DNA of 64,000 nt from an uncultured Alphaproteobacteria bacterium (lineage in GTDB: Bacteria > Pseudomonadota > Alphaproteobacteria > RF32 > CAG-239): assembly GCA_934271465.1 (NCBI GenBank), contig CAKQRQ010000010.1:951-64950 (forward strand), given 5' to 3'. A program made the position numbers and the translations under genes. The notes beneath the pieces are model-generated. The model was given only the letters and a program-made list of their open reading frames with translations. It was not told the origin of the DNA and ran no database searches. Shown here piece by piece: positions 45,118-63,120 of the stretch. Numbering within the stretch: the stretch's first letter is position 1; each line of letters begins with the position of its first letter.

Positions 45118-46131
45118 CTAAACCGCTTTTTTTGTATCTTGATTGGCAATTTCCTGCATTCTGAAAAGCTTAAGCCGCTCAATCTGCTGTTTCTTAACAT
45201 ATTTGAGATATCCCTCATAGCCGAACAGCACAAAGGCCGACAAAATCAACGGCAGTAGGTAATAGATAATGCGGTAAGCCAACAGCGCGCCAAACAGCAT
45301 CGCCCGATTATGGTCGCCGGGGATAATATACATAAACAGCCCCTCAAACACGCCCAATCCGCCGGGAACCTGACTGAACACGCCCAAAACCTGCGCAATG
45401 ATAAACACGCCCATAAAGGTCGAAAACGGAATATCGACAAAGGCAATCAGCGAGAAATAGAGCACCAGCGAGGCCATCAAAATATCCGCACCCCCGATAA
45501 TGACCTGAGCCAAAGCCATGGGCGGCCGCGGCATATCAAGCTCAACGCCTTTGATAATCAAAGGTTTGCGATACCAGATGCTCAAAGCAAAATACCCCAA
45601 AAGGCCGACTGCCGAAATCAGCGTGACTACCTCGGTTGTCAGTTTTGACACGGAACCGTCGCCAAAAGCGTGATTCGGCGTGATAAAATAGCCGATGATA
45701 ATCAGCAAAAAGCACGCGACCAAATAAGTAAAGCCCGAAAACGTAACCATGCGGACAATCTCGGTGCCTCTGAAACGCCATCTGGTATAGAGGCGATAGC
45801 GGATTGTGCCGCCGGAAACAATGGCATGACCGGCGTTGTTGCTGACCGAAAAGCCGATAAATCCGGCAAAAATCCATTTCCACGGCGCAAGCTTCCGCCC
45901 GATGTAGCGCAAGGCCAAATAATCATACGAGGACAACGCGACATAGCCCAAAAACGACGCCGCGCACGCCATCAACAGATTGTGCGGCGGGATAGACATC
46001 AAAGCATTTTTGATGTCCTCAAGGCTGTATTTTGAAAGCTGGCGATAGAGCATATACGCCGCCACGCCAAAGAAAAACAGCCCCGCCCAAGAGAGAGCCT
46101 TTTTGAGAATCTTTTTTGTCTGAACCGCCAT
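45118..46131 (-). CDS. UPF0104 / lysylphosphatidylglycerol-synthase-TM-like (flippase-like) membrane protein
   Basis: About 8 TM helices, start at MAVQTKKILKK; last gene of the minus-strand glycan operon. Confidence 0.55.
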   Translation of the reverse strand: MAVQTKKILKKALSWAGLFFFGVAAYMLYRQLSKYSLEDIKNALMSIPPHNLLMACAASFLGYVALSSYDYLALRYIGRKLAPWKWIFAGFIGFSVSNNAGHAIVSGGTIRYRLYTRWRFRGTEIVRMVTFSGFTYLVACFLLIIIGYFITPNHAFGDGSVSKLTTEVVTLISAVGLLGYFALSIWYRKPLIIKGVELDMPRPPMALAQVIIGGADILMASLVLYFSLIAFVDIPFSTFMGVFIIAQVLGVFSQVPGGLGVFEGLFMYIIPGDHNRAMLFGALLAYRIIYYLLPLILSAFVLFGYEGYLKYVKKQQIERLKLFRMQEIANQDTKKAV

Positions 46132-46256
46132 TTGATGCCTCTGTAAAAATAAATAAACCCAACTGTGACAAGTTATAATTTGAATATACATAACCGTCAA
46201 TATTTAAAATATAATTACCTTGGCAAAAATTTTTGGAAAGAAAAGAGTGTGGTAAA

Positions 46257-47204
46257 CTAAATTTTCTGCAAAAGTAATTTCTTATAATATTTAGGCAAAA
46301 AAACAAAACCATAACTTTTTGCCAAAAATTTACGCACCTTATAAAAAGGAATAGTTTTCAGAAGTTTTGCAATTTTTTCTATCCGACTTACAAGTTCTGG
46401 ATGACGATAAATACTCCCAGAATAAGTCATCGTGCAAATACCGTTATAGCGTTTTTTGTATTCATAATCACCGCCCAATAAATAAGCTTTTTTCTTATGA
46501 TTATTAATCCAGCTCTCAATAATATTATGATAAAGAACCATTCCGATAGAGTATTTAGAATACTCAAGGTCATAGGCAAAATTTTCAAAATAGACATTTT
46601 CTTTATTTGTCTCTGAATCAAAACCGATAGCTATAATTTTACTGCCAGTTTTCAATAAATATGCATTAGAAACGCCAAAATCTTTTAAATACAAATTAGG
46701 ATCATATGAAAAATCGTGAGATATTTTTTTCCAAGATAAATACAAATCAACAATATCTTGAGAAATCATTTCTTTCTCTATTTTTTCAAAACAAATATTT
46801 CCAACCTCTGTCAACAACTTTTTGGCATAATATCTGGCATGTTGTCTTTCTTTTCCCGAAAGTTGAGCATCAAATTCCTCAATAGTTTGAGGCAAATCAA
46901 TATGCCAATGCGGCGCCGCTTTAATAGTTGAAAAAGGAGTATAAGTATGCAAAATAGAAATTTCTAAAATATTAGAATTCGAAGAAAACACATAATTCGC
47001 AAACTCTAGCAAATTTTCTTTTCCTATATTTCTCAAATACAATCCAGCCAGACAAACATTGCCCTGCAAATGAATCGGAATCAATATTCCACTATCTAAC
47101 TCAACTAAATTATAATCTGTTCCAAATAGTAAATCAAATCTGTTATGTATAACATCAGGATCTATATTAAACAGCTTTGCTTTTAACAATTTCGCCATCA
47201 TCAA
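46257..47204 (-). CDS. putative FemAB/CelD-like (GNAT-fold) acyltransferase
   Basis: 315-aa AT-rich ORF; weak resemblance to Acetyltransf_6/FemAB family; C-terminal IPFYKVRKFLAK motif. Confidence 0.35.
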   Translation of the reverse strand: MMMAKLLKAKLFNIDPDVIHNRFDLLFGTDYNLVELDSGILIPIHLQGNVCLAGLYLRNIGKENLLEFANYVFSSNSNILEISILHTYTPFSTIKAAPHWHIDLPQTIEEFDAQLSGKERQHARYYAKKLLTEVGNICFEKIEKEMISQDIVDLYLSWKKISHDFSYDPNLYLKDFGVSNAYLLKTGSKIIAIGFDSETNKENVYFENFAYDLEYSKYSIGMVLYHNIIESWINNHKKKAYLLGGDYEYKKRYNGICTMTYSGSIYRHPELVSRIEKIAKLLKTIPFYKVRKFLAKSYGFVFLPKYYKKLLLQKI

Positions 47205-47229
47205 TCTCTAAATAATTAAATTTACAGTT

Positions 47230-48186
47230 CTAATATTTTAAAAATAGCTTAAATTTTTTTCTGATTTTCTTTATCGGAAAAAGACAAACAACAGGCCTTA
47301 AAATCAACTTAATAAACGACATAAATAGCAATTTATATTTAATCTTGTTCAAATCAATACATAAACTCTGCAATGCGCACAATAACTCTCTTTGCACTTT
47401 AAATACTTCCTCATCACTAATATCATAATTTTTAACAAGATTATTCAAATCCGCTTCACAAAATTCATAATTCGATAAATCTAAAGGTTCCTTTTGTTTA
47501 TTAAATACAGAATAGTAATCATAAAATTTATAGCGGCTAGTTGTTTCTTCTGAAATCCTAACCCACTGATTGGGAATACGTAAAGCATCACACGCTATTA
47601 GCGGATGCATCGCCGTAGAAATAACGGCTTTACACTCACACATATCATGCAAAAATTTGTCAACAGAAAGCGTAGCATCTAAAATTTTGGAATTTGGTAT
47701 ACGCCCCGTAATTTTGGAAAAAACTTTGCTATCTCTATCTGCATAATGAGGCACTATTCCTAATTCATATTTCTTTTCAATCTTATCAGAATCAATAAGG
47801 TAACTAACTAACAAACCACCATCACCTAAAACAGCTCCAGTCGAATGGCCTAACATTTTAGATATACGAGCCTCCGTTAATTTACCACGAAGAGCATAAC
47901 ACTTTACATTACGCCTTAATTTTTCTGGTAAAATAATATTAGGATTATGAAAAAATTTTCCCTCCTCAAAGCCTATACCCGTAGAAAATAACCAAATAGG
48001 GTTTTCTTTAAATATATGGTCTTTAGTATCCATTAAGAGCATATCGCCTAAAGAACCTATTCCCATAATCATCGCAAAATCCACAGGAGCAAATCTAATT
48101 TTAATTTTTGCTAATTTAGAAAAAATAATAGGATTCAAAGCATCTCCAAAATTAGGTATATCACAGTAAAAAAAAGGAATTTTCAT
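47230..48186 (-). CDS. polysaccharide pyruvyl transferase family protein
   Basis: N-terminal FFYCDIPNFGDALNPIIF is typical of PS_pyruv_trans (CsaB/WcaK-like); C-terminal FPIKKIRKKFK motif. Confidence 0.6.
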   Translation of the reverse strand: MKIPFFYCDIPNFGDALNPIIFSKLAKIKIRFAPVDFAMIMGIGSLGDMLLMDTKDHIFKENPIWLFSTGIGFEEGKFFHNPNIILPEKLRRNVKCYALRGKLTEARISKMLGHSTGAVLGDGGLLVSYLIDSDKIEKKYELGIVPHYADRDSKVFSKITGRIPNSKILDATLSVDKFLHDMCECKAVISTAMHPLIACDALRIPNQWVRISEETTSRYKFYDYYSVFNKQKEPLDLSNYEFCEADLNNLVKNYDISDEEVFKVQRELLCALQSLCIDLNKIKYKLLFMSFIKLILRPVVCLFPIKKIRKKFKLFLKY

Positions 48187-48224
48187 TATATTTTCTCCAA
48201 ATTTTATAAAAAAATAATTTGCTG

Positions 48225-48812
48225 TTATTTCAAATAATTTTTAAAAATATCCTCTCTAACCCACTCTCTTGGCAATTCATTCACTTGAGGATAACTCATA
48301 CAAGCCTCATCCAAATTGTCATAATTTAACTTATCTCTCCACCCAACTATTTTAGCAGGATTGCCTGCTACTATAGCATACTTGGGAATACTTTTAGTTA
48401 CAACACTACCTGCACCAACAATTACACCATCATCTATTTTTACTCCACCTAATATGATACATCTAACACCTATCCATACGTTTCGGCCAATTTCGACATG
48501 TCTCAATAAACCTATATGATCATAGGGAATGCGCGTAGAACTCTTATAATTATGACAGGTAGTGAGAATTAAAGAATCTTCTCCTAACTTCGAATATTCA
48601 CCTATTGAAATCCCCCCCTCAGCATACAATTTACATCCCCTTCCTATATACACATTACCACCAAGTTCAATGTTTTCAATAAACCGACATTCTGCTGTTG
48701 GTTCAATAACATTTTCCTTGTAAATTTTTGGCAAATGTTCTTTTTTGTATTCAATTTGTAGTTTTTTACGAATTTTCTTTAATGGTATTAAATTTATCAT
48801 CCATTTTTTCAT
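48225..48812 (-). CDS. hexapeptide-repeat (LbH) O-acetyltransferase
   Basis: Left-handed beta-helix repeats (NVYIGRGCKL, IGRNVWIGVRCIILGGVKIDDGVIVGAGSVV); N-terminal LIPLKKIRKKL motif. Confidence 0.75.
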   Translation of the reverse strand: MKKWMINLIPLKKIRKKLQIEYKKEHLPKIYKENVIEPTAECRFIENIELGGNVYIGRGCKLYAEGGISIGEYSKLGEDSLILTTCHNYKSSTRIPYDHIGLLRHVEIGRNVWIGVRCIILGGVKIDDGVIVGAGSVVTKSIPKYAIVAGNPAKIVGWRDKLNYDNLDEACMSYPQVNELPREWVREDIFKNYLK

Positions 48813-49555
48813 AATTTGCCTTTCAAATACCTTGTGATAGGAATGAGTCTAAATGCCTCAGCATAATTTACATTATTCGCCATACACCCCCTATAAATAT
48901 TCAATCCCAATATGCGTGGAATTAAATTATATTTTACCCATTGCGATTTATACAACTTTAGAGCTTGTTTTTTTACAGAGACAACCTGTGAGATATCTTC
49001 ATAATAATTTGGAGATTTAAGAGGAGACCAAACTTCATAAAAGCCTATAATTGTATCTTTATTATAGCCTTTTCTACGTATAATTTCTTTAGCAAGAACA
49101 TTTGTTATGTATTTATGTTCTATATGTTCATCATAAGGATTAGGCAAAAAAATATAATCATACCTTAATATATCTAACACAGCACAATAATCTTGAAACA
49201 TTTCGTTAATTTGATCAATAAAGGGAGGCTTTCCAAAAGTTTTAAATATCCACCTATTTTGAACCCCCAACATATCCATAACTTTGTTAAATTCCACAAT
49301 CCTAATATCAGCCCGTTCTTCAGCTTGAATATCTCCATAAGCAACCCCTGAGCTTGAAACACAACAAACATCAAAATTTTTAGTATATTTAATAAGCATT
49401 CCTCCCATCCCTAGCATTTCATCATCTGGATGAGGAGCAATCAAAAGACATCGTGTATCACTTTCTATGCTTAAATCAATGTGACGAAAATAATATTTTC
49501 GTAGTTTATGCCTTAATTTCTTATTAGGAATAAAATTTATTAACCACTTCCACAC
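48809..49555 (-). CDS. PIG-L/LmbE family N-acetylglucosaminyl deacetylase
   Basis: LLIAPHPDDEMLGMGG motif; N-terminal FIPNKKLRHKL motif. Confidence 0.75.
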   Translation of the reverse strand: MWKWLINFIPNKKLRHKLRKYYFRHIDLSIESDTRCLLIAPHPDDEMLGMGGMLIKYTKNFDVCCVSSSGVAYGDIQAEERADIRIVEFNKVMDMLGVQNRWIFKTFGKPPFIDQINEMFQDYCAVLDILRYDYIFLPNPYDEHIEHKYITNVLAKEIIRRKGYNKDTIIGFYEVWSPLKSPNYYEDISQVVSVKKQALKLYKSQWVKYNLIPRILGLNIYRGCMANNVNYAEAFRLIPITRYLKGKL

Positions 49556-49567
49556 AATACAAACCCC

Positions 49568-50527
49568 TCATCTTTTCACATTATATAAAGACTTGCGCAT
49601 TCTTTTTAATTTTTTGCGAAAAGTTTTTATCGGCATTAATTTTAAACAGAGCCACAAAAAAAACGACTTAAGATAAACAATGTTTGTCGGAAAAAAATAA
49701 TCTTTGTTATAAAAAGGTGAAGTTTCAATATATGAAAAATATTCTTTTGATATTTCAGTATATGCTCTATTCCATATTTTAGGATTCCTTCCAGCATAGT
49801 GAATAATTTTAGGATTAGCCTTTGCTTCCTGAAGCTCTGCATCAGAATACACATGTGAAAGCCAAGGATACTCAGGAGCTAAATTTATAGGGTAATCAAA
49901 TATATTCTCCAAAACACAATAATTAAAAGGTATTTCCAAAATCTTATCAACAGACAAATTCAAAACATCTAAGTCAAACATTTTTAATTCTGAGTTAAAA
50001 TCCTTTATAGTCTGAAAAAAACGCGAAAGCATATTTTTATTTCGCCATTGTTTAGCATTTATAAGCATAAAACCAGACATATAAATATACGGTTTGGAAT
50101 TTGACTTGAAATGCGTATGAACACCATTCTTTTCATCCTGCCGTTCAGCTACAACCCCTGCCCAATCATAATCAGATAAATCCATATTATATATCTCTGT
50201 CAAATCTCCACGAAATAAAACATCAACATCTGACCAAATTATTTTATCATATTCTTTAACAACATCCGCAATAAGCAATCTATAATAAACAGATATTGGC
50301 CAATTCTCTGAGATTGGTGCATTAGAAAAAAAATCACATACTTTAATCCATCTAATATATGGACATACGCACCCCATTTTGGAAATTGTCTTTTCACTCA
50401 AATTTCCATATAATACAATTATGTCATATTCTGTATCAAAGTTCCTATGTTTTAATAAAGATGAAATAGCAATACTTGCGGGAAGAGCATACCTATCATC
50501 AAAAGCAAAAACTATGGGTATTTTCAT
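49568..50527 (-). CDS. glycosyltransferase family 8
   Basis: IVFAFDDRYALPASIAISSLL, YYRLLIADV..., DVDVL (DxD); C-terminal MPIKTFRKKLK motif. Confidence 0.75.
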   Translation of the reverse strand: MKIPIVFAFDDRYALPASIAISSLLKHRNFDTEYDIIVLYGNLSEKTISKMGCVCPYIRWIKVCDFFSNAPISENWPISVYYRLLIADVVKEYDKIIWSDVDVLFRGDLTEIYNMDLSDYDWAGVVAERQDEKNGVHTHFKSNSKPYIYMSGFMLINAKQWRNKNMLSRFFQTIKDFNSELKMFDLDVLNLSVDKILEIPFNYCVLENIFDYPINLAPEYPWLSHVYSDAELQEAKANPKIIHYAGRNPKIWNRAYTEISKEYFSYIETSPFYNKDYFFPTNIVYLKSFFLWLCLKLMPIKTFRKKLKRMRKSLYNVKR

Positions 50528-51672
50528 TGTGAAAGAATCTCCTTAAAATTATTTAAACTTTCCATTTTCAACCGTTCAAACAATTGCATAAGAAATATTT
50601 GTTTTTTCTTATATCCTTGCTGATCAATTGTGATAGCTTCTTGCATACCTTTAGTTAAATCTTTTGAAATTATTGCATTTTCATTATCAAAACCATAAAA
50701 TGGTGCAAAATGTGGATGTATGACAGGAATCTTTCCAAATGCATATATAAGTTGAGCCGAACCAGTAACTCCGGTAGTAATGTAACGATTATGTTCAAAA
50801 TTTTCAGGATTTAACAACGGCAAATAAAAATCAGCTTCTTCCATATATCTAAACATCTCTGAAAAATTCAAACGTCCCGTTATTTCAATATATGAACGAA
50901 TTTCTTCTGGTAAATTTTCCAATTTACCTTTGCCAACGACAACAACCTTAAAATTTTGCTTTAACGCAACTAATTCTTTAATCGCCGAAATCAATTTCTG
51001 ATGATCTTTACGTTCTTGTTGTATTCCTCCAACACATATAAATACGGTCTTTTTTCCTTTTTGTGTTATATTAATACTTCCAAACAAAAGCGGAGAAGCA
51101 AACACTGTTTGAGGGAAATGTCCCAAAGTTATGAGATGTTTTTGTTTGCAGAAAGAACGTTCATTAAAACGGTTTATATCATTTAAATCATGTTCTACAA
51201 TAAACAATGAATGGTGCTTTCTCAACTGTGGATAATAATTTAATACGGACATATACATACCATTAACGCAATAAAAATAAGCAGCTGAGCTCATTAGAAT
51301 AATATGTTTATATTCATAAAATTTTCTAGATGCCAAAAAAAACTTCATCAATGAAAAATCGGACATAAAAACAAAAACATTTGAAATATCTAAACGACAA
51401 AATGGATTTTCTTTTACTATTATCGGATTTACAAGTATATCAACATTATATCCAATATCTTGAAAATATTTCAAATAACCGCCTATAACCTCCCCATGAG
51501 TATTATTTACTTCAACAAGTAATACACTATTTTTCCTCGTTTTCATCTTTAAAAATTTATACAAATTGCAAAAATCCTGTATATTTAAATGCATTAAATA
51601 ATTACGAAAATAGCGACGTTTATTTCTATTAAAAATAAGGAACGTTAACAACCTCGCAATAAACTTTTTCAT
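50524..51672 (-). CDS. glycosyltransferase family 1 (GT4-like)
   Basis: C-terminal GT-B nucleotide-binding motif (ICVGGIQQERK...EADFYLPL...TGVTGSAQLI). Confidence 0.65.
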   Translation of the reverse strand: MKKFIARLLTFLIFNRNKRRYFRNYLMHLNIQDFCNLYKFLKMKTRKNSVLLVEVNNTHGEVIGGYLKYFQDIGYNVDILVNPIIVKENPFCRLDISNVFVFMSDFSLMKFFLASRKFYEYKHIILMSSAAYFYCVNGMYMSVLNYYPQLRKHHSLFIVEHDLNDINRFNERSFCKQKHLITLGHFPQTVFASPLLFGSINITQKGKKTVFICVGGIQQERKDHQKLISAIKELVALKQNFKVVVVGKGKLENLPEEIRSYIEITGRLNFSEMFRYMEEADFYLPLLNPENFEHNRYITTGVTGSAQLIYAFGKIPVIHPHFAPFYGFDNENAIISKDLTKGMQEAITIDQQGYKKKQIFLMQLFERLKMESLNNFKEILSQ

Positions 51673-53024
51673 GCCTTCCCCCACTGTTCTAATATCCAAG
51701 AAGATGAATTCATTTTACTGCTTCCGCCAACTCCAAAAGCTAAATCCACATGGCATTCCTCACATACCGGATGTTCCGGTATATTATCTTTTCCCCTATC
51801 TCCACCATTTGCAAAGACCAAATGTATATTAGGATATTTAACTTTAGCTTTTCTTATTCCGTCACTTGCTGAGCCATCAGAATCATCAAATTCAATAACA
51901 TCCACAACGCCTTTAAGGTTTTCTAAAATCGATTTCCGTGTCTGTATTGAATAAAAATTTTTTCCTTTTTTTCGTTTTAACCATTCATCAGAATTAACTA
52001 AAACTATCACCCCATCTGAAGCGGACGAAGCGGCCTTTATCATTTCTATATGTCCCTCGTGAATAGGATCGAAGCCACCTGACACAATGTAATAAGTTAA
52101 CTTTGAATTGTTTTTTAATAAAAACAACTTTTTCAAAAAGTTAAGAATCGTTTGTTTAAAAATTCTTCTAGAACGTTTTCTAATTAGTCTGTCTGACAAT
52201 GATGTCTGTTGCAAAAGCCCCTTAACCTTCAAAAAATCTTTTGGATCCATTTTTTTGATATTCAAAAAATTTATTATACAAAAATCACTTAAAGCTCTTT
52301 TATCTTCCTCTAAACAAGCTTTTTTTCTCGCAAAATCCATAATCATTCTGAAAATAGAAATACTGTCCTGTATACGCTTAATTTCTTTTGCGGGATCTCG
52401 TGTTGTGCTATTCGGATTACAAACATAATTATATCCAGAACCATCTATAACTGAAAACTTATCAGAATAAAACAAAGCATTAATAACAAATAAATTATCT
52501 TCCCAATAAAGCCCTTCAGGAAAAATAATTTGATTATTTTTAATAAGGTCAATTTTATATATTTTATCCCAAACACCACCATGAGGCAAAACTTTAACTT
52601 TATCTGAAAATTTTGTTAAAATTTTATGCCCAAAGTGAGTCTGTTTAACACTCTTTCTCTCAACATATTTTGTATTTGTCATAACAATATCGGCATTTAC
52701 ATATTGAGCTTCAGTAAACAAATCCATCAAAAATTCAGCATCATAAAAGTCATCAGAATCTAAAAAACAAACATATTGACCAGAAACTAGCTTAAGTGCT
52801 CTATTACGAGCAGCAGCCTGACCTTGATTCTCCTGTGTCACAACCTTTATTCGAGAATCTTTTGCAGCATATCGATTCAAAATTTCAACACTGCCATCTG
52901 TCGACCCGTCATTAACAACAATCGCTTCCCAGTCTTGAAATGTCTGAGCCAAAACAGAATCCAGACATTTTGCAACATACTTTTCGCAATTATAACAAGG
53001 GATAATTACCGAAATCTTAGGCAT
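51669..53024 (-). CDS. family-2 glycosyltransferase fused to C-terminal cytidylyltransferase-like (HIGH-motif nucleotidyltransferase) domain
   Basis: N-terminal ISVIIPCYNCEKYVAKCLDSVLAQTF...FLDSDD GT2 motifs; C-terminal YYIVSGGFDPIHEGHIEMI nucleotidyltransferase motif. Confidence 0.75.
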   Translation of the reverse strand: MPKISVIIPCYNCEKYVAKCLDSVLAQTFQDWEAIVVNDGSTDGSVEILNRYAAKDSRIKVVTQENQGQAAARNRALKLVSGQYVCFLDSDDFYDAEFLMDLFTEAQYVNADIVMTNTKYVERKSVKQTHFGHKILTKFSDKVKVLPHGGVWDKIYKIDLIKNNQIIFPEGLYWEDNLFVINALFYSDKFSVIDGSGYNYVCNPNSTTRDPAKEIKRIQDSISIFRMIMDFARKKACLEEDKRALSDFCIINFLNIKKMDPKDFLKVKGLLQQTSLSDRLIRKRSRRIFKQTILNFLKKLFLLKNNSKLTYYIVSGGFDPIHEGHIEMIKAASSASDGVIVLVNSDEWLKRKKGKNFYSIQTRKSILENLKGVVDVIEFDDSDGSASDGIRKAKVKYPNIHLVFANGGDRGKDNIPEHPVCEECHVDLAFGVGGSSKMNSSSWILEQWGKA

Positions 53025-53889
53025 GATTCTGTCCCCCGTTCTTCAACTTAATTGTCATTTTGCTTGTCAACAGCGGGATTTTTTCAAACAAATAGACCTT
53101 TGTTCGGTTGCCCTGACGAGTAATCGTCAAAAACGGAATTATCCCAAACAGGTTTATCCTCGTTGTCCGCTTGGCTTTCAGCAAAAATTCTTCATACAGC
53201 GCCGGATTAGCCGCTCTCACAAATGCCCAAACCGCAAAGCCTGCATTCTTCATCTTTTCCGCCTGATGATGCGTCGTGTTGTTCTCATGATCCCGATAAT
53301 GAAACAACACTTCCGGCAAATTATGAAACTTCGTTACGCCTATCAGCCTGCTCCACAACGCATAATCTTCCGCCGGACTATACTCTTCCTCATACCTGAC
53401 ATTGTTCTTTGTTAGAACAGATTTCCGTATCATCGCCGCCGAATGTGATATTGCGCACACGCTCATCAGCGCCAGTTTAATCTCATGGTCATTTTCCAAA
53501 CATTCAGAATATGTTCCTCGTATCATATTCTTGATTTTGCAACTAACCACGCCGACTTCCGGATGTGCGTCCAGATACGCAACTTCTTTTTCCAAACGCT
53601 CCGGCAATGAGATATCGTCATGATCAAACACAGCCAAATACTCGCCCTTGGCCATATCTATCAATTTGTTTCGGCTCGGCGTTATTCCGAGATTATGCTC
53701 ATTTTTACTATATTTGATACGCGCATCATGATAAGACTTAACTATCTCCTCCCGATTATCTTCAGGACAATCGTCTAATATCAAAAACTCAAAGTCGCTA
53801 AAAGTCTGCGCCAAGATACTTTCTATCGCCTCGCGCAGATATGATTCCTTGGTTCTATACACCGGCATTAATACGGATACTTTAGGCAC
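53017..53889 (-). CDS. family-2 glycosyltransferase
   Basis: VSVLMPVYRTKESYLREAIESILAQTF...VFDHDD motifs. Likely GTG start at 53887-53889 with ggaggg RBS (the ORF-track ATG at 53958 overlaps the upstream gene). Confidence 0.75.
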   Translation of the reverse strand: MPKVSVLMPVYRTKESYLREAIESILAQTFSDFEFLILDDCPEDNREEIVKSYHDARIKYSKNEHNLGITPSRNKLIDMAKGEYLAVFDHDDISLPERLEKEVAYLDAHPEVGVVSCKIKNMIRGTYSECLENDHEIKLALMSVCAISHSAAMIRKSVLTKNNVRYEEEYSPAEDYALWSRLIGVTKFHNLPEVLFHYRDHENNTTHHQAEKMKNAGFAVWAFVRAANPALYEEFLLKAKRTTRINLFGIIPFLTITRQGNRTKVYLFEKIPLLTSKMTIKLKNGGQNHA

Positions 53890-54466
53890 GGACGCCCTCC
53901 TGAGTAATACTCTGATTTTTCTTGATATAGGCAAGGAGCGAGGTGTAGCCGCAGCCAAGTTCGGCCGCCAGCTGGCGTTTGCTCATGCCGGTTGACAGAC
54001 GCTGCTTAATCAGCTTGTCCTTATCCGCCAAAGATGCCATTTGATTATCGCCCTTAAACGGTCGACCGCGCTTTTTGCCTGATTTCAGCAAATTTTCTTG
54101 AATATTCTTGTTTTTGACTGACAAAACGGACTTATAAAGTTGCAAACAAATTTGAGCTGTCGTGTCAAAAGCCTGCGGCATCATGGTGTCAATTTGTAGA
54201 TTATTGCCGACGATATAAATTCGCACACCGCGCTGCGCCAACCGGCTGACCGACTGAATAACTTCTTCAAAACCGTTACCCAAAGCCCTCACATCTTCAA
54301 TCATAAAGACATCACCGGAATGCAGGCGCGATAAATTGGCCTCACTTAAAGCTTGAGCTTTGATAAACCGCTGAATGGTAAAATTGCAGGTGTGAGCATA
54401 CTCAAACAACAAACACTCTTGCTGCTTGCCCGATAGTCCCGTTTTATTTATAAATGCCGCTATCAT
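53882..54466 (-). CDS. small serine-recombinase (resolvase/invertase)-like protein, non-canonical active site
   Basis: 194 aa. Resolvase-like N-terminal domain (..GLSGKQQ.. aligned to RVSTxxQ; RLHSGDVFMIEDVRALGNG aligned to GDTLVVWKLDRLGRS; RLAQRGVRIYIV) and C-terminal HTH (MSKRQLAAELGCGYTSLLAYIKK). Two conserved catalytic Arg appear substituted. Confidence 0.55.
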   Translation of the reverse strand: MIAAFINKTGLSGKQQECLLFEYAHTCNFTIQRFIKAQALSEANLSRLHSGDVFMIEDVRALGNGFEEVIQSVSRLAQRGVRIYIVGNNLQIDTMMPQAFDTTAQICLQLYKSVLSVKNKNIQENLLKSGKKRGRPFKGDNQMASLADKDKLIKQRLSTGMSKRQLAAELGCGYTSLLAYIKKNQSITQEGVRA

Positions 54467-54513
54467 TCAGCCCAAACCTTTATCTTATAACACTTTACCA
54501 GCGGCGATTCGAT

Positions 54514-54658
54514 TCTTCATAAACCACCGTCTAGAATATATATCAGACCTTTTACACTATTAAAAAGAACAATGCAACCCAAAAGTTGGGTTTTCCTGTA
54601 TTTTTGCCATTTTACAAATTGTTGATTTTGTTTGTTCGCAAACGGTGGTTTATGAAGA
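54514..54658. promoter_or_regulatory. candidate invertible DNA segment flanked by 17-bp perfect inverted repeats
   Basis: tcttcataaaccaccgt (54514-54530) and its exact reverse complement acggtggtttatgaaga (54642-54658) flank 111 bp carrying TTGCAT-N17-TAAAAG-like promoter elements; it lies immediately upstream of the recombinase-like gene heading the glycan operon. Confidence 0.45.
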
Positions 54659-54733
54659 TTTGATGCAAACACGGCTGCTCGGCCGTTTTTTTGTAAAAAA
54701 AATCCGCCAAAGAAACACTCTTCCGGCGGAAAA

Positions 54734-54807
54734 TGGAGCAGGTAACGGGAATCGAACCCGCATATTAAGCTTGGGAAGCTCACATTCTACCATTGAATTA
54801 TACCTGC
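54734..54807 (-). tRNA. tRNA-Gly (anticodon CCC)
   Basis: Reverse complement GCAGGTATAATTCAATGGTAGAATGTGAGCTTCCCAAGCTTAATATGCGGGTTCGATTCCCGTTACCTGCTCCA; cloverleaf with anticodon loop TTCCCAA and terminal CCA. Confidence 0.85.
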
Positions 54808-54864
54808 AAGCTGTTGCCGAATTATTTACTCCAAATAAATTCACTTGGCAACAAAATATTTAAG

Positions 54865-56439
54865 TTATTCCTTCACTTTGGCAAATTTGACCTTAGGAAA
54901 GTCCTCCTGCGCCTTGTTCAAATGCCAAGCATTGCGCGCCAAAAAGACCAAAGCTCCGTCATTATCTTCGGCCAAATTCAAACGGTTGGCATCTGTAAAT
55001 TTCTTCATCTCCAGTTTATCTTCCGAGGACACCCACCGCGCGGTAAAATACTGAGTCGGTTCAAACATGACCGGCAGATTAAACTCATTTTTAATCCTGT
55101 CCGCCATAACCTCAAACTGCAAAACGCCTACAACGCCCACAATCCATTCCGCGCCGACCACCGGCTTAAACACGCTCGCGCCGCCCTCTTCGGCAATCTG
55201 TTTCAGCGCGTCGCCCAAATGCTTGGATTTCAAAGGATCCAGCGCCCGTGCCGATTTCAAAAGTTCCGGCGCAAAAGCCGGTATCCCTGTAAAGTTAATC
55301 TTTTCGCCCTCGGTCAAACTATCTCCGATTCTAAGTTGCCCGTGGTTGGGGATTCCGATAATATCCCCTGCAAACGCATCTTCCGCAAGCTCCCGCTCTT
55401 GAGCCAAAAACATAACCGGCGTCGGCACCTTAAGTCCCTTGCCCGTGCGCACCTGCGTCAAAGTCATTCCCCGTTTAAAATGCCCCGAACAAATCCGCAT
55501 AAAGGCAATCCTGTCACGATGTTTCGGATCCATATTTGCCTGAATCTTAAACACAAACCCCGTCACCTTGCCCTCATCGGGATTAACCATTCGTTCCACC
55601 GCCGGATGAGGTCTCGGAGTCGGCGCAAATCGGTGTAATCCTTCCAAAACCTCCCTCACGCCAAAATTATTGATGGCGCTTCCAAAAAAGACAGGAGTCA
55701 CAGTTCCGGCCAAATAGGCCTCCAAGTCAAACTTAGGGCACAATTCCTCAATCATCATCACATCTTCACGCAGTTTGGCCACCTGATGCGCCGGCAACAA
55801 CTCGTCCAACTTTGGATCATCCAACCCTGAACATGTCTCAATCACGCTGTTAACGGTTGACTTATCGCCGGTTTTGCTCATCAAAATCATGCGGTTGTTC
55901 AAAATATCATAACACCCTTTAAAGTCTTTACCTGATCCAACCGGCCAACTTGCCGGTGTCACATCCAAAGCCAACGTGCGTTCAATCTCGTCCAACAACG
56001 CAAACGGATCCTGCCCCTCTCGGTCAAGTTTGTTGATAAAGGTAATAATCGGCACATCTCTCAGCCGGCAAACCTCAAACAGTTTCTTGGTCTGAGCCTC
56101 AATACCTTTGGCCGAGTCCAAGACCATCACGGCCGAATCAACCGCCGTCAGCACACGATACGTATCTTCCGAAAAGTCCTCATGCCCCGGTGTATCCAAC
56201 AGGTTAAAAGTAATTCCGTCATAGTCAAAAGTCATCACGGACGAAGCCACCGAAATTCCGCGCTCCTGCTCCACTTTCATCCAGTCCGACCGCGCACGGC
56301 GGTTTTCGCCGCGGGCTTTAACGGCGCCAGCCTGCTGAATAGCCCCCCCGAACAACAGCAATTTTTCGGTCAAAGTTGTCTTACCGGCGTCAGGGTGGGA
56401 AATAATCGCAAAAGTTTTGCGCGGATTAACTTGTGTCAT
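54865..56439 (-). CDS. prfC: peptide chain release factor 3
   Basis: AIISHPDAGKTTLTEKLL GTPase G1, DTPGHEDF, NKLD; 524 aa. Confidence 0.9.
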   Translation of the reverse strand: MTQVNPRKTFAIISHPDAGKTTLTEKLLLFGGAIQQAGAVKARGENRRARSDWMKVEQERGISVASSVMTFDYDGITFNLLDTPGHEDFSEDTYRVLTAVDSAVMVLDSAKGIEAQTKKLFEVCRLRDVPIITFINKLDREGQDPFALLDEIERTLALDVTPASWPVGSGKDFKGCYDILNNRMILMSKTGDKSTVNSVIETCSGLDDPKLDELLPAHQVAKLREDVMMIEELCPKFDLEAYLAGTVTPVFFGSAINNFGVREVLEGLHRFAPTPRPHPAVERMVNPDEGKVTGFVFKIQANMDPKHRDRIAFMRICSGHFKRGMTLTQVRTGKGLKVPTPVMFLAQERELAEDAFAGDIIGIPNHGQLRIGDSLTEGEKINFTGIPAFAPELLKSARALDPLKSKHLGDALKQIAEEGGASVFKPVVGAEWIVGVVGVLQFEVMADRIKNEFNLPVMFEPTQYFTARWVSSEDKLEMKKFTDANRLNLAEDNDGALVFLARNAWHLNKAQEDFPKVKFAKVKE

Positions 56440-56554: not shown

Positions 56555-57382
56555 TTATTTACCGATTTCGTTTCCTTTGGTGTCATATTTGACAACCTTG
56601 GCCTTGTCCTGCAAATTCTTAATTAAATCGCCCATAGATTTTTGCGCCAGCATAGCTTTAAGCTGGGGCTCAATCTGTTTCATAGGCTGCGGTTTGGCGG
56701 TGCGGATGTCCTCAACCAAAATGACGTGATACCCGAACTGTGTCTTGACCGGAGTCTTTGTATATTGGCCTTTTTTCAGCTTAAAAGCCGCATCGGCAAA
56801 TTCAGGCACCATCATATCTTTTGTGAAATACCCCAAATCAGCTGGTTCTTTGGAATATTCCTTAGCCAATTTCTCAAAATTGCCGTCTTTCTGGAATTTA
56901 GCAATAACTTCTTTAGCCTTGGCCTCGGAATTAACCAAAATATGTTTGGCCTTAATTTCCTGTTCGCCATGGAAAGTCTTTTTGTAATCTTCATACAACT
57001 TTTTGACAGCCGCGTCATTGACCTGAGCTCTGACCTGTTTGTCCAGATAAATCTTGCGAGCCAATTCCTCTTTCAGGCTTTTGAGCTGATTCTTATACTC
57101 GGGCGTTTCCTCAACCTTAGCTGCCTCAGCCGCCTGATAAACAATCTCGCCGTCAACAAAAATATCCAAAGTTTTCTCATAAAACTCATCAAACGAAGCC
57201 TTTTCCTTAACAGCCGGATTAGCTTCATAAGCAGTTTTGATGTCGGCAACCGTAATTTTTTTGCCGTTGACGACAGCCGCAACGCCGTCTTTTCCGGCAG
57301 CCAAAGACGTTCCCGACTGCAGCAAAGCCAAGCCGAAAGCCGCCAACAGCAAATATTTTTTGTTCATATCCTTTTCCTCCAC
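56555..57382 (-). CDS. parvulin-type peptidyl-prolyl isomerase (SurA/PpiC-like), periplasmic
   Basis: Signal peptide; C-terminal parvulin domain (AKHILV...FGYHVILVEDIR). Confidence 0.75.
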   Translation of the reverse strand: MEEKDMNKKYLLLAAFGLALLQSGTSLAAGKDGVAAVVNGKKITVADIKTAYEANPAVKEKASFDEFYEKTLDIFVDGEIVYQAAEAAKVEETPEYKNQLKSLKEELARKIYLDKQVRAQVNDAAVKKLYEDYKKTFHGEQEIKAKHILVNSEAKAKEVIAKFQKDGNFEKLAKEYSKEPADLGYFTKDMMVPEFADAAFKLKKGQYTKTPVKTQFGYHVILVEDIRTAKPQPMKQIEPQLKAMLAQKSMGDLIKNLQDKAKVVKYDTKGNEIGK

Positions 57383-60335: not shown

Positions 60336-62357
60336 TCATCCAAACAAGGCAAGCACGCTCTGGGCGGAATTTGCAGCAAGGGAAAGAGCGTTGGTGGCGA
60401 GTTGCTGGCGGGTTTGGAGCGCCAAATAATTCGCAGATTCCTCGTTCATATCAGCCAAAACGAGATTATCAGCCCCTGTTTCCAAAACATCTGTCAAAGC
60501 CTCGGTAAAATTTTGACGTGTCTGAATAATACTGTAATTGTTGCCTAATTCTGATTGAAATGTGCGAATTTTGTTAACCGCCGCCAAGAGCTCTTGAATT
60601 GAGTTTGCGATATCTCCCTGCGTTGTCCATTCAGCTTTGGTCAGTCCTAACGCGGCGGAACTCATATCCTTTCCTTGGACTGTTAGTTTGTTGTTTCGGG
60701 TTTCGTTGAACACAACGTCCAATTTTTCATTTTTGAGTAAATTAACGCCTTGATATGATGAGTCATTAATTAATTTATCATACTGCTCAAAAGCTTTGTT
60801 ATATTGATCGATGAGCGAGTCAGCAATTTGTCTGGTCGACGTATCTGAAGAAAATGTATTTGTAACTTCAATCTCACCGCGGGTTTGAAGCAGTGAAGAG
60901 AATATATCGTTTTCAAGGTTTTGAATCCCCGTAATGTCTATATTTCTATTGCCCCAATATGTCACTTTAAACCTCCCGCCATACGGATTATCCGGATTAA
61001 AATTCCCCGTGCCGAAAAATGAGCTAAACGTCAAGTCCCTCAGGTTGATAATTGTCGCATCGCATCCGTCTCCCGAGACGGCCGCAATCACGCCGACGAC
61101 CTTTTTGCTGCCGTTGTAATCCGCCGCCAAACCCCACGTTTTATCTTCATACATGACGTCGCCCACTTTGGGCGCCGTTCCATCCGCGGACGGATTAAAA
61201 ATATTTTTTAAAAGCTGAGAACAACGCATGGCGCCCGTGAAATCCTTATAATAGCTTTCCAAGTCGCCATCACTTCCGTCGATCCTCCATGAAGTGCCTG
61301 AAGTCTCCTCAGACGAGGACCAATAAGGAAAGGAGCGGAGAGCTGCCGCATCAACACCTTTGGTAGCAAGCGCATTCAAGGCGTTATTGATAAGGAGCAT
61401 CTTATCGCCTATAGCACCGGTTAAGCTGCCTCTGCCCGTTATTTTGCTAGTGTCTGTGCCGTAAAATTCCATCCACTCGCCTATTGAAGGCAAATACCAT
61501 TTACCTTGGCCGAAGTCGCCGTTTTTGTCACCGACATAAAATTGGCTTGCTGCACTGGCTGCCAGTCCGGCTTCTCCGATTTGGTCGAGAATGGCTTTTG
61601 TATTTGCTTGTCCGTCGTAAATCTCCATTGCTGCAACATTGCCATTGGCAAGTCTTTGCGCCCCTGTGCCGCTAACCGTAATTCCAAAGGTATTATCTAA
61701 CGTCAATTTACCGCCGTTCAACACCCTGATACCGGCAACTTTTTCTCCTGAGGCGAAAATTTTCAAATTGCTAATGCTTGCACTGTTTCCGGTTCCATCT
61801 ATCTCTATGGCTGATTTACCGGATTCTGTAGCAGTGTAAGAGATTTTGTGCCCGTTGCCGTCTAAAGTCACATTCGCCGCTGTGATACGGAGCTCAGTTG
61901 TTAAGGTAATGTCGCCTGAAAGGACAACTTTTGCGCCTGCGGCAATAGCGGCTTGAAGCTCTGCCTCTGTGCCAACGGCCGTATAGCCCTCGGCGATATA
62001 ATCTTCTATCGATTTGCCCGCTGTCGTCCCTGAACCTGAGGCACTGCCGATTTGGCTCAAGGCCTCGTTTGCAACGGCCGAGGCTTGTTCGAGGAATGAG
62101 GCACCGCTTGTCAGGCCTTGCGTCGCCGCTTGGATTGTTTGTATCCCCTGTCCCATCGCGTCTAATAAGGCGTCTAAATCCGAGGCTCTGTTTGTGAGAG
62201 CTCTTGCTTGATAATAGCTTGAGGCATTATCAATTGCGGAATTGACTTTCTTTCCTGTCGAAAGCCTTTCCTGTGTCGTGTTCATTTGTTTGGAGATGTT
62301 TTTCAGGCTGTTTAAGTTGCTCCGCATTGACGCCGTCAGCGTGATACTCTTTACCAT
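60336..62357 (-). CDS. flagellin-family protein with large inserted central domain (beta-helix-like plus DUF1566-like module)
   Basis: N-terminus SITLTASMRSNLNSLKNISKQMNTTQERLSTGKKVNSAIDNASSYYQARALT... and C-terminus ...ANYLALQTRQQLATNALSLAANSAQSVLALFG match flagellin D0/D1 helices. The central about 400 aa includes repetitive beta-helix-like strands and FYVGDKNGDFGQGKWYLPSIGEWMEFYGTD, nearly identical to the 8811-10181 protein. Confidence 0.7.
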   Translation of the reverse strand: MVKSITLTASMRSNLNSLKNISKQMNTTQERLSTGKKVNSAIDNASSYYQARALTNRASDLDALLDAMGQGIQTIQAATQGLTSGASFLEQASAVANEALSQIGSASGSGTTAGKSIEDYIAEGYTAVGTEAELQAAIAAGAKVVLSGDITLTTELRITAANVTLDGNGHKISYTATESGKSAIEIDGTGNSASISNLKIFASGEKVAGIRVLNGGKLTLDNTFGITVSGTGAQRLANGNVAAMEIYDGQANTKAILDQIGEAGLAASAASQFYVGDKNGDFGQGKWYLPSIGEWMEFYGTDTSKITGRGSLTGAIGDKMLLINNALNALATKGVDAAALRSFPYWSSSEETSGTSWRIDGSDGDLESYYKDFTGAMRCSQLLKNIFNPSADGTAPKVGDVMYEDKTWGLAADYNGSKKVVGVIAAVSGDGCDATIINLRDLTFSSFFGTGNFNPDNPYGGRFKVTYWGNRNIDITGIQNLENDIFSSLLQTRGEIEVTNTFSSDTSTRQIADSLIDQYNKAFEQYDKLINDSSYQGVNLLKNEKLDVVFNETRNNKLTVQGKDMSSAALGLTKAEWTTQGDIANSIQELLAAVNKIRTFQSELGNNYSIIQTRQNFTEALTDVLETGADNLVLADMNEESANYLALQTRQQLATNALSLAANSAQSVLALFG

Positions 62358-63120
62358 ATCACACCTCCGATTTTACAAAAACCGTCATGTTCGGGCTTGA
62401 CCTCTCTTTTGTCATCCTCGTGCCCGAGCGCAAGCGAGGAATAGACACGGGGATCCAGGAAAATTTTGATTCCTTGTTCGACCTGGATATTCGGGTCAAG
62501 CCCGAATATGACAGAAAAGGAAATCGGCTCCGCCTCGGGCACGAGAATGACAGAAAATTCTTCTGTAAGCCTAGAAACTGTAAGGGGGAGGGTAAGACGA
62601 GGCGTGTGCTTGAACCACCCGCGGCGCACACCGCAAGTCCGTTCAATCCGTTGATGTTATTTCCTAAAATCACGCCTAGAACCTCGTTTTTACACCTCAA
62701 AAGGAGAGCAAAAGTTCTCCTTTTTACTCTCCTTTTAACCTATTATCTTTCCTCTCCGTTTCAATCTGTTTCGAAAACTTATGCAGAGATTTTTTAACCC
62801 CAAGCAAAAACAAACTGGGTTCGGGCTTAATTTACAACTTCTTAGTGTTGGCGTGCAAAGAGTTAAAGAATAATACGGGTGTAAAGCAGCGGTAGCGTTC
62901 AGTCGTTTGCCGCCAACACTTAGAAAGTAAATTCCAGCCCGATGACTTTTGGTTACTTTTGGTCACTCAAAAGTAACGTAAAACGATGCTCAAACTTTCA
63001 CCAAAAAATAATTTGGAAATTTAAATAAGGATTCTTTGTTTCACCTAGATTTCCGGGTCAAGCCCGAAAATGACCGATTCTTACTTTTCCGTCCCGAACA
63101 AATTGCTCTCCTTTTGAAAA

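Follow-up and report, generated by a model that had tools for sequence, protein, structure and literature searches.

An apparently inactive paralogue of the Mpi DNA invertase at the head of a glycan operon with a putative invertible promoter in a gut alphaproteobacterium

Introduction

We describe the gene that opens a glycan-biosynthesis operon of an uncultured alphaproteobacterium, from a 64-kb stretch of DNA (contig CAKQRQ010000010.1 of assembly GCA_934271465.1) that is referred to as the window and whose coordinates count from its first letter. The gene encodes a degenerate relative of Mpi, the master DNA invertase, and is termed pseudo-Mpi. It lies directly behind a short, repeat-flanked segment of DNA that is found in both orientations in natural populations, and we regard it as very likely that an inactive paralogue of Mpi heads a glycan operon whose promoter is invertible. 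The finding is well documented computationally and directly testable, and pseudo-Mpi is probably a regulator of the switch or of the operon rather than the enzyme that flips the segment.

Invertible promoters that vary surface glycans are among the main means by which bacteria of the gut evade phages and the immunity of the host; much work has been done on them in Bacteroides and very little in gut Alphaproteobacteria. The Mpi protein of Bacteroides fragilis inverts 13 regions, 7 of which are polysaccharide promoters (PMC4747536), and these Mpi-controlled promoters (PMC4747536, PMC10403206) form the system with which the window locus is compared below. The locus represents a natural Mpi-type switch in gut Alphaproteobacteria, with both states visible in public metagenomes, and it holds a conserved, selected and apparently dead invertase copy that is placed for production only when the switch is ON. 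Full-text searches of the accessible papers, those on Bacteroides included, turned up neither an inactive invertase paralogue within an operon under an invertible promoter nor Mpi-type switches in gut Alphaproteobacteria.

An Invertible Segment Between tRNA-Gly and Pseudo-Mpi

Between the tRNA-Gly gene and the pseudo-Mpi gene lies an inverted repeat of 22 nt with 91% complementarity between its arms and a perfect core of 17 nt, for which 0.16 matches are expected by chance (Table 1). An earlier reading of the same DNA, made from the sequence only, had named such a flanking repeat simply as an idea for an inversion assay; the repeat is present, and it bounds a demonstrably invertible segment with a predicted promoter, and this alters the nature of the finding. 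In four metagenome contigs with a gene for the identical protein, both flanks are 100% identical to those of the window and the intervening 111 bp are reverse-complemented. At this locus, with tRNA-Gly upstream, the window and three contigs (L009, L010 and L014) share one orientation and contigs L001-L004 carry the flipped one, a count of 4 versus 4. Sister loci, which encode close homologues of pseudo-Mpi, are divided 2 versus 9, with L016 and L019 window-like and L006/L035, L015, L017, L020, L021, L036 and L039-L041 flipped, and the sole difference between L019 and L020 is the flipped 112 bp. These counts rest on contigs retrieved by exact-protein match; a metagenome scan for the repeat pattern gave one contig.

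An assembly artefact was considered as the origin of the two orientations and was rejected, since typical assembly k-mers are longer than the 17-22-nt repeat and both states are seen again in independent samples and at three allelic loci. The segment at 54531-54641 therefore truly inverts in natural populations, in a site-specific manner, and the window locus is an inverton in the sense of a repeat-flanked segment that occurs in both orientations between identical flanks.

The best dyad at each site consists of 12 bp + 2 bp + 12 bp and has the same position in three locus types, with centres that read AAACC-AC-CGT in the window, AAATC-TC-CGT in the sister loci and CTAACG-AA-CGTT at the locus of the homologue P0020. 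To judge from these dyads, the arrangement is the layout of serine-invertase sites. The repeat core has no further copies in the window beyond two 3-mismatch matches inside genes, and there is therefore no evidence here for a regulon of switches. A scan of the switch region against Rfam found only the tRNA-Gly, together with sub-threshold matches to microRNA families that merely reflect the inverted repeat.

Homology and Fold of Pseudo-Mpi

When single models are used as the query, the similarity of pseudo-Mpi to resolvases appears real and sub-threshold. The Pfam model for the resolvase domain (PF00239) aligns with residues 45-125 only, with an E-value of 0.0027 and a score of 18.3 bits that is below the gathering cut-off of 23.3, and the model HTH_7 (PF02796) for the C-terminal helix-turn-helix (HTH) scores 14.9 bits against a cut-off of 23.8. 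The sequence-only reading had proposed a check with these two models, and resolvase similarity is present with both scores under the cut-off. The NCBIfam equivalog model for the master DNA invertase Mpi (NF009949) aligns with residues 44-187 only (E 1.3e-7, 31.5 bits against a cut-off of 272), and PDB chains of Tn3, gamma-delta, Sin and Gin match with E-values of 0.02-0.8. The N-terminal 44 residues, which include the nucleophile region, remained unaligned in the single-model and PDB-chain searches.

An alignment of profiles extends over the complete protein. With hhalign, 24 members of the degenerate family that includes pseudo-Mpi were compared with 31 canonical Mpi-family proteins, giving a probability of 100% and an E-value of 2.3e-39 over 194 columns, which is the full length. 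The structural model that the earlier reading had called for was built with AlphaFold from a 48-sequence alignment and has a predicted local distance difference test (pLDDT) score of 82; a model made with the 19 close homologues only had a pLDDT of 55 and was unusable. The model shows resolvase topology, in the order strand-helix-strand-strand-helix-strand, followed by an E-helix (100-128), an arm and an HTH (150-183). Foldseek relates it with a probability of 1.0 to the Sin, Tn3 and gamma-delta resolvases and to Gin, and the top matches are 2r0q (Sin) and the Tn3 resolvase-site III complex. By both homology and fold, pseudo-Mpi belongs to the small serine recombinase superfamily, so that the resemblance noted from the sequence alone was well founded, and the profile comparison identifies it as a full-length homologue of the Mpi-family small serine DNA invertases.

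Loss of the Active Site

The residues R7, S9, S71, R72, R75, E123 and R130 of Mpi are invariant in 31/31 canonical Mpi-family sequences, and in the hhalign and joint MAFFT alignments each is replaced in pseudo-Mpi. R7 (R8 in gamma-delta) is Asn7, the nucleophile S9 (S10) is Thr9, S71 (D67) is Arg60, R72 (R68) is Ala61, R75 (R71) is Asn64, E123 (E118) is Tyr111 and R130 (R125) is Lys118; the nucleophile position is Ala in the homologue P0017, and the S71 position is Thr in most close homologues. Among 24 sequences of the degenerate family, Arg is found at R7 in 0/24, at R72 in 0/24 and at R75 in 3/24, Glu at E123 in 0/24, and Ser at S9 in a single one (1/24), with N, K, G or A at the nucleophile position elsewhere in the family. 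The family keeps G63, S116, G130, G134, R135 and P136. Pseudo-Mpi thus lacks both the nucleophile and the catalytic arginine and acidic residues of a serine recombinase, and it is predicted from these alignments to have lost its whole active site and to be catalytically dead.

Several of these substitutions had been anticipated by eye. The assignment of Asn to the Arg71 equivalent agrees with the family-aware alignment (Asn64), and the Arg8 equivalent is indeed substituted, although the aligned residue is Asn7 and not Gly10. The serine nucleophile that was thought to be retained in the motif 'LSG' resulted from an alignment error: Ser12 of this motif aligns two residues downstream of a small deletion, off the nucleophile position, which is Thr9, and the claim of a retained nucleophile therefore fails. 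An intact R-S-D-R-R set in a hidden Markov model (HMM) alignment, which would have made the protein a canonical invertase, was also considered in that reading; the profile alignment shows the catalytic residues replaced.

The switch inverts at a locus where pseudo-Mpi is the only recombinase-like gene nearby, and one interpretation is that pseudo-Mpi is a divergent but active invertase that flips its own switch by means of a non-canonical active site, with Thr9 or Ser12 as nucleophile. Thr9 does place a hydroxyl at the nucleophile position, and all close homologues share Ser12. We nevertheless consider this very improbable, as the equivalents of R8, R68, R71, D67 and E118, which belong to the residues invariant in Mpi, are all replaced, and the catalytic positions are unconserved and vary freely even inside the degenerate family. 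Mutagenesis of resolvases has shown that the catalytic residues replaced here are individually essential. Moreover, an intact, canonical Mpi is encoded beside the same switch at loci whose pseudo-Mpi is 92% identical to that of the window.

A Degenerate Family Under Purifying Selection

The active site of pseudo-Mpi is apparently lost and its Pfam and NCBIfam scores are under their thresholds, as might be expected of a functionless, decaying remnant of an invertase that is kept only by its place between a promoter and glycan genes. The pattern of sequence change is that of a maintained gene. Pairwise comparisons of the window gene and three sister alleles give ratios of nonsynonymous to synonymous substitution (dN/dS) of 0.06-0.12 at synonymous divergences (dS) of 0.29-0.61. 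A word-indexed search found 19 close homologues with 87-100% identity, all of them intact; 17/19 are exactly 194 aa in length, and the other two have 187 and 193 aa. Pseudo-Mpi is therefore not decaying but is under strong purifying selection, and decay, which the sequence-only reading had left as an option, is refuted by these ratios and by the full-length homologues; as an explanation of the gene it is exceedingly improbable.

The degenerate proteins form a family of their own. An exhaustive HMMER scan of 1.84 billion representatives gave 143 matches, and those down to approximately E 1e-8 are without the R-x-S and SRxGR motifs, with canonical Mpi-like invertases (YxRVST ... SRLGR) in the list only below that level. 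At E<1e-10 the degenerate family comprises approximately 30 representatives at 50% clustering, and its members share a distinct motif, LYKSILSxxNKxIQxNLLxxGKxRGRP, down to 23% identity. A profile search of genome contigs matched only 3 species genomes, so that comparative coverage among reference genomes is thin.

Within the degenerate family, conservation is highest in the arm (0.59), followed by the E-helix (0.52), the HTH (0.46) and the ex-catalytic domain (0.38). Compared with the canonical Mpi that is encoded beside the sister alleles, pseudo-Mpi has 39% identical residues across the arm and HTH, 25% across the catalytic domain and 17% across the E-helix. The low dN/dS values, together with the arm, E-helix and HTH as the best-conserved parts, argue that the function under selection is non-catalytic and probably involves DNA binding.

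Canonical Mpi at Sister Loci

At the loci of P0019, P0006, P0007 and P0014, a divergently oriented gene for a canonical resolvase of 195-202 aa, with YIRVST and SRLGR motifs, lies approximately 80 bp from the distal arm of the repeat. The pseudo-Mpi proteins of these loci are 88% (P0019, from a metagenome-assembled genome of an uncultured alphaproteobacterium of the Hadza gut) and 92% (P0006 and P0007) identical to the window protein. The canonical copy in L006 scores 272.5 bits and so reaches the NCBIfam cut-off of 272 for the Mpi equivalog, mpi in L019 and L020 has its own fixed promoter-like site outside the switch, and the protein cluster of the sister-locus mpi was found only at mpi-adjacent loci and so gave no link to the genome of the window.

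The same order of genes recurs at greater distances. In a very common gut alphaproteobacterium, for which one source gives the label 'Acetobacter sp. 46_36', the Mpi protein P0252 (indexed in 4548 blocks) is followed by an inverted repeat with perfect arms of 18 nt (ACGAACGTTTAATTCTTA) that encloses 102 bp, then by a degenerate paralogue of 192 aa, which shares 34% identity with the window protein, and by glycosyltransferases that differ between strains. P0020, a 39% identical homologue, follows a 17-nt perfect repeat. Among the four closest lineages examined (P0001, P0006/7/14/19, P0020 and P0027-like), pseudo-Mpi lies directly behind an Mpi-type repeat segment in all, and a canonical mpi is also adjacent in 2/4 (P0006/7/14/19 and P0027-like). 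A module of Mpi-type switch, pseudo-Mpi and variable glycan genes is thus conserved. The window locus is a variant of this module without an adjacent mpi, whose flipping enzyme must presumably act in trans.

Further features were seen at these loci. In the 'Acetobacter sp. 46_36'-type contigs L032-L034 (4637-4774), promoter-like sites are present on both strands of the switch segment; GGGACA-16-TACAAT faces pseudo-Mpi, TTGACT-18-TATAAG faces mpi with its -10 spanning the boundary of segment and arm, and 3/3 contigs have one orientation. In L039 (1-3106), the neighbours of the sister mpi and pseudo-Mpi genes encode a Fic-domain protein and a large serine recombinase of >514 aa (Resolvase + Recombinase + Zn_ribbon_recom), which suggests that a mobile element adjoins or contains the locus in that strain. 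Two 217-aa genes in L005 were considered as paralogues and rejected as unrelated, and a 903-aa open reading frame (ORF) in L006, considered as SecA in a check of synteny, is not SecA.

Promoter and Terminator Signals of the Switch

Two promoter-like sites inside the segment face pseudo-Mpi in the window (Table 1). The first of these points away from the gene in the flipped contig L001. The alternative site is suggested by alignment with the sister switches, in which the GGGTTG -35-like block and its spacing are kept in otherwise divergent segments (TTGATT-17-TAAAAG or TAGAAA). The segment probably carries the operon promoter, and, given the direction of the promoter-like sites, the window orientation can be called ON with moderate confidence. 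A hairpin with a T-rich tail within the segment would face the operon as a terminator-like element after inversion.

Additional hairpins are found outside the segment. The terminator-like hairpin just beyond the distal arm points away from the operon, and a comparable outward-facing hairpin is present in L019 (993-978), between the switch and mpi; such hairpins in both locus types would suit a promoter directed outward in the OFF state, and that of the window may insulate against transcripts leaving the OFF switch. On the opposite strand, the hairpin after tRNA-Gly is predicted to stop the upstream prfC/tRNA transcript, and with read-through stopped in this way the operon would depend on the switch promoter. 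Two terminator-like hairpins are thus found back to back, one per strand, between tRNA-Gly and the distal arm (54671-54729).

Pseudo-Mpi as the Head of a Variable Glycan Cassette

The stop of the pseudo-Mpi gene overlaps the GTG start (53889) of a family 2 glycosyltransferase (GT2) gene by 8 nt, GTGCCTAA, as the sequence-only reading had reported, and AGGAGG precedes this start. Within this glycan-biosynthesis operon of approximately 9 kb, pseudo-Mpi is promoter-proximal and is coupled in translation to the gene that follows it. The G+C content is 0.30 at 46-53 kb, versus approximately 0.45 in the flanks, the pseudo-Mpi gene and the first GT2 gene. Several metagenome contigs stop 60-130 nt beyond the pseudo-Mpi gene, and the sister alleles then carry different genes, which encode GT61 enzymes, a 660-aa protein, or 303/286/355-aa proteins. 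The assembly breaks and the differing downstream genes indicate that the cassette behind the gene varies between strains, and pseudo-Mpi is therefore the conserved head of a strain-variable glycan cassette.

Possible Roles of Pseudo-Mpi

A mechanism that would link these features begins with a canonical Mpi-family invertase, of the type encoded beside the same switch in the sister loci, which would flip the window segment in trans by crossover at a hix-like site with 12-bp half-sites around a 2-bp core (AAACC-AC-CGT). With the operon promoter inside the segment, pseudo-Mpi would be produced in ON cells only. The retained E-helix, minor-groove GRP arm and HTH might then let pseudo-Mpi bind Mpi-type sites, or nearby DNA, without cutting, where it could occupy or mis-assemble the recombination sites, stabilising the ON state or coordinating other loci, for example, and/or tune transcription of the operon. 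That pseudo-Mpi feeds back on the switch and/or tunes operon transcription is our tentative preference. A regulator derived from an invertase was among the options listed in the earlier reading, and it gains support from the apparent loss of catalysis, the selection on the gene and the canonical Mpi beside the same switch.

A more specific proposal is that pseudo-Mpi is a decoy or non-catalytic subunit of the Mpi machinery, made only in ON cells, that sets the bias and memory of the switch through the crossover sites or the synapse. We hold this narrower proposal to be doubtful. If true, pseudo-Mpi would lock or prolong the ON state or coordinate several glycan loci, and it would represent a class of recombination regulator that is undescribed for any phase-variation system and apparently conserved across gut Alphaproteobacteria.

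Several observations weigh against a role in inversion or against the switch as described. No canonical invertase or other recombinase was found in the 64-kb window by tblastn with four Mpi proteins or by Pfam scans of 36 further ORFs outside the operon. The E-helix, which forms the dimer/tetramer interface, is the part least like canonical Mpi, and its 17% identity argues against mixed oligomers. Distant members of the family head glycan operons without a recognisable Mpi-type inverted repeat, with an ordinary TTGACA-17-TATTCT promoter in L008 and AT-rich repeats only in L023 and L025, so that the core function of the family may not concern recombination. The promoter calls in the window are weak consensus matches (9/12), and the in-segment hairpin is not conserved in the sister loci.

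The distant members also bear on another interpretation, in which pseudo-Mpi is a locus-specific transcription factor that uses a recruited invertase scaffold and has no effect on inversion. Such a factor might activate transcription, act in the manner of an anti-terminator or cross-repress other glycan loci, with a logic similar to that of UpxY/UpxZ. Some glycan operons that lack a detectable Mpi-type inverted repeat begin with family members of 22-36% identity (P0273 precedes UDP-glucose dehydrogenase, epimerase and RgpF genes; P0269 precedes RgpF, GLF and GT8 genes; the L008 member precedes a GLF gene), conservation of the HTH and arm contrasts with loss of the catalytic residues, and pseudo-Mpi is translationally coupled to the first glycosyltransferase. 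However, a plain transcription factor has no need of the tight linkage to Mpi-type repeats in four lineages and to mpi in two, no operator-like site was identified, and the distant member P0263 is found outside a glycan context. We judge this interpretation unlikely, and feedback on the switch is rated above it.

Among the distant loci, L023 (5920-6091) and L024 (2242-2399) share an AT-rich inverted repeat of 25-32 nt with 81-84% complementarity and 108 nt between the arms. This repeat spans the start codon of P0273, has the same orientation in both contigs, and may be due to chance in an AT-rich genome.

Should the dead copy feed back on inversion, it would explain switching bias and memory on a locus-by-locus basis and would constitute a simple, testable two-protein system. 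Should it be only a transcription factor, the locus would still be a clear case of a recombinase domesticated into a regulator.

Comparison with Known Systems

Pseudo-Mpi belongs by homology to the same protein family as B. fragilis Mpi (Ssr2), and in both systems a segment of approximately 100-200 bp, with a promoter that is only predicted in the window, lies between inverted repeats of approximately 20 nt upstream of glycan operons; Mpi can act on distant sites, as the enzyme that flips the window switch would have to do. Unlike B. fragilis Mpi, the window protein is without the nucleophile and catalytic arginines (31.5 bits against the cut-off of 272), and its host is an alphaproteobacterium rather than a member of the Bacteroidales. 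A consensus for Mpi sites, ARACGTWCGT, was reportedly given by Coyne and colleagues in 2003. The sequence AAACGTTCGT, contained in the inverted repeat of the P0252 locus, and AACGAACGTT, contained in that of P0020, match this consensus, and the repeat core of the window, AAACCACCGT, agrees with it at 7/10 positions.

UpxY and UpxZ are the conserved first genes of B. fragilis polysaccharide loci, and encode, respectively, a NusG-like antiterminator and a protein that inhibits it. The window locus resembles these loci in having a conserved, putatively regulatory gene at the 5' end of a phase-variable glycan operon, with divergent biosynthesis genes after it; expression only with the locus promoter ON, and a potential route to cross-talk between loci, would be further likenesses. 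The protein families are unrelated, however, and the head gene of the window operon derives from the invertase itself, so that its target may be recombination sites.

With the invertases Hin, Gin, Cin and Pin, pseudo-Mpi shares the small serine recombinase fold, the C-terminal HTH and the GR arm, and the window sites can be read, as can hix and gix sites, as two 12-bp half-sites around a 2-bp core. Those enzymes are active, are encoded beside their own switches and depend on a Fis-bound enhancer, whereas pseudo-Mpi is apparently inactive. A precedent for recombinase dimers that bind DNA in an architectural or regulatory capacity is provided by res sites II/III of Tn3/gamma-delta and by site II of Sin (2r0q). 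There, the same active protein has both roles; here, the non-catalytic role would be that of a separate, permanently inactive paralogue.

Features of the Window and Its Genomic Setting

Table 1. Coordinates of the switch, the glycan operon and their predicted signals in the window.
Feature	Position	Strand	Description
Glycan operon	45118..53889	minus	Co-directional, downstream of pseudo-Mpi; GT2, GT2-cytidylyltransferase fusion, GT1/4, GT8, PIG-L deacetylase, hexapeptide acyltransferase, pyruvyl transferase, GNAT-like protein, LPG_synthase_TM membrane protein
Pseudo-Mpi gene	53882..54466	minus	194 aa, apparently catalytically degenerate paralogue of Mpi-family serine invertases; residues 1-99 ex-catalytic domain, 100-129 E-helix, 130-141 GRP arm, 150-185 HTH
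Gene-proximal inverted-repeat arm	54509..54530		TCGATTCTTCATAAACCACCGT; perfect core TCTTCATAAACCACCGT holds putative crossover AAACC-AC-CGT
Invertible segment	54531..54641		111 bp; both orientations in independent assemblies, flanks identical
Promoter-like site	54535..54563	minus	TTAATA-17-TATATT, inside segment, facing pseudo-Mpi; 9/12 consensus
Alternative promoter-like site	54549..54577	minus	TTGCAT-17-TAAAAG, putative, from alignment with sister switches
Hairpin and T-rich tail	54576..54592	plus	AACCCAAAAGTTGGGTT; would face operon after inversion
Gene-distal inverted-repeat arm	54642..54663		ACGGTGGTTTATGAAGATTTGA
Terminator-like hairpin and T-run	54671..54692	plus	Hairpin at 54671-54686; just outside distal arm, pointing away from operon
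Hairpin CCGCC...GGCGG and T8	54695..54729	minus	After tRNA-Gly; sequence read directly
tRNA-Gly(CCC)	54734..54807	minus	Occupies place of canonical mpi in sister loci

The genes dnaG, greA, relA/spoT, gcrA, clpXP, tig, prfC and secA identify the window as core chromosome of an alphaproteobacterium. Within the operon, the 451-aa protein encoded at 51669-53024 is an unusual fusion, with a GT2 domain at its N-terminus and a cytidylyltransferase-like domain (PF01467) at its C-terminus.

A family of short repeats is present at 62379-63079, upstream of a gene for a 673-aa flagellin (60336-62357, minus strand). Copies of the repeat GTCAT(G/A/T)TTCGGGCTTGACC lie at 62384 (+), 62494 (-) and 63056 (-), where chance would give 0.02 matches, and GTCATCCTCGTGCCCGAG / CTCGGGCACGAGAATGAC are interspersed among them; the arms are 91-105 bp apart, a spacing similar to that in the glycan switch. 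These repeats could be an element similar to a miniature inverted-repeat transposable element (MITE) or repetitive extragenic palindrome (REP), or a second switch with different repeats. Long ORFs also lie antisense to prfC and to a gene for a PpiC-type rotamase (56555-57382), one example being an ORF of 281 aa at 54793-55638 (+), and they appear to be by-products of composition rather than genes.

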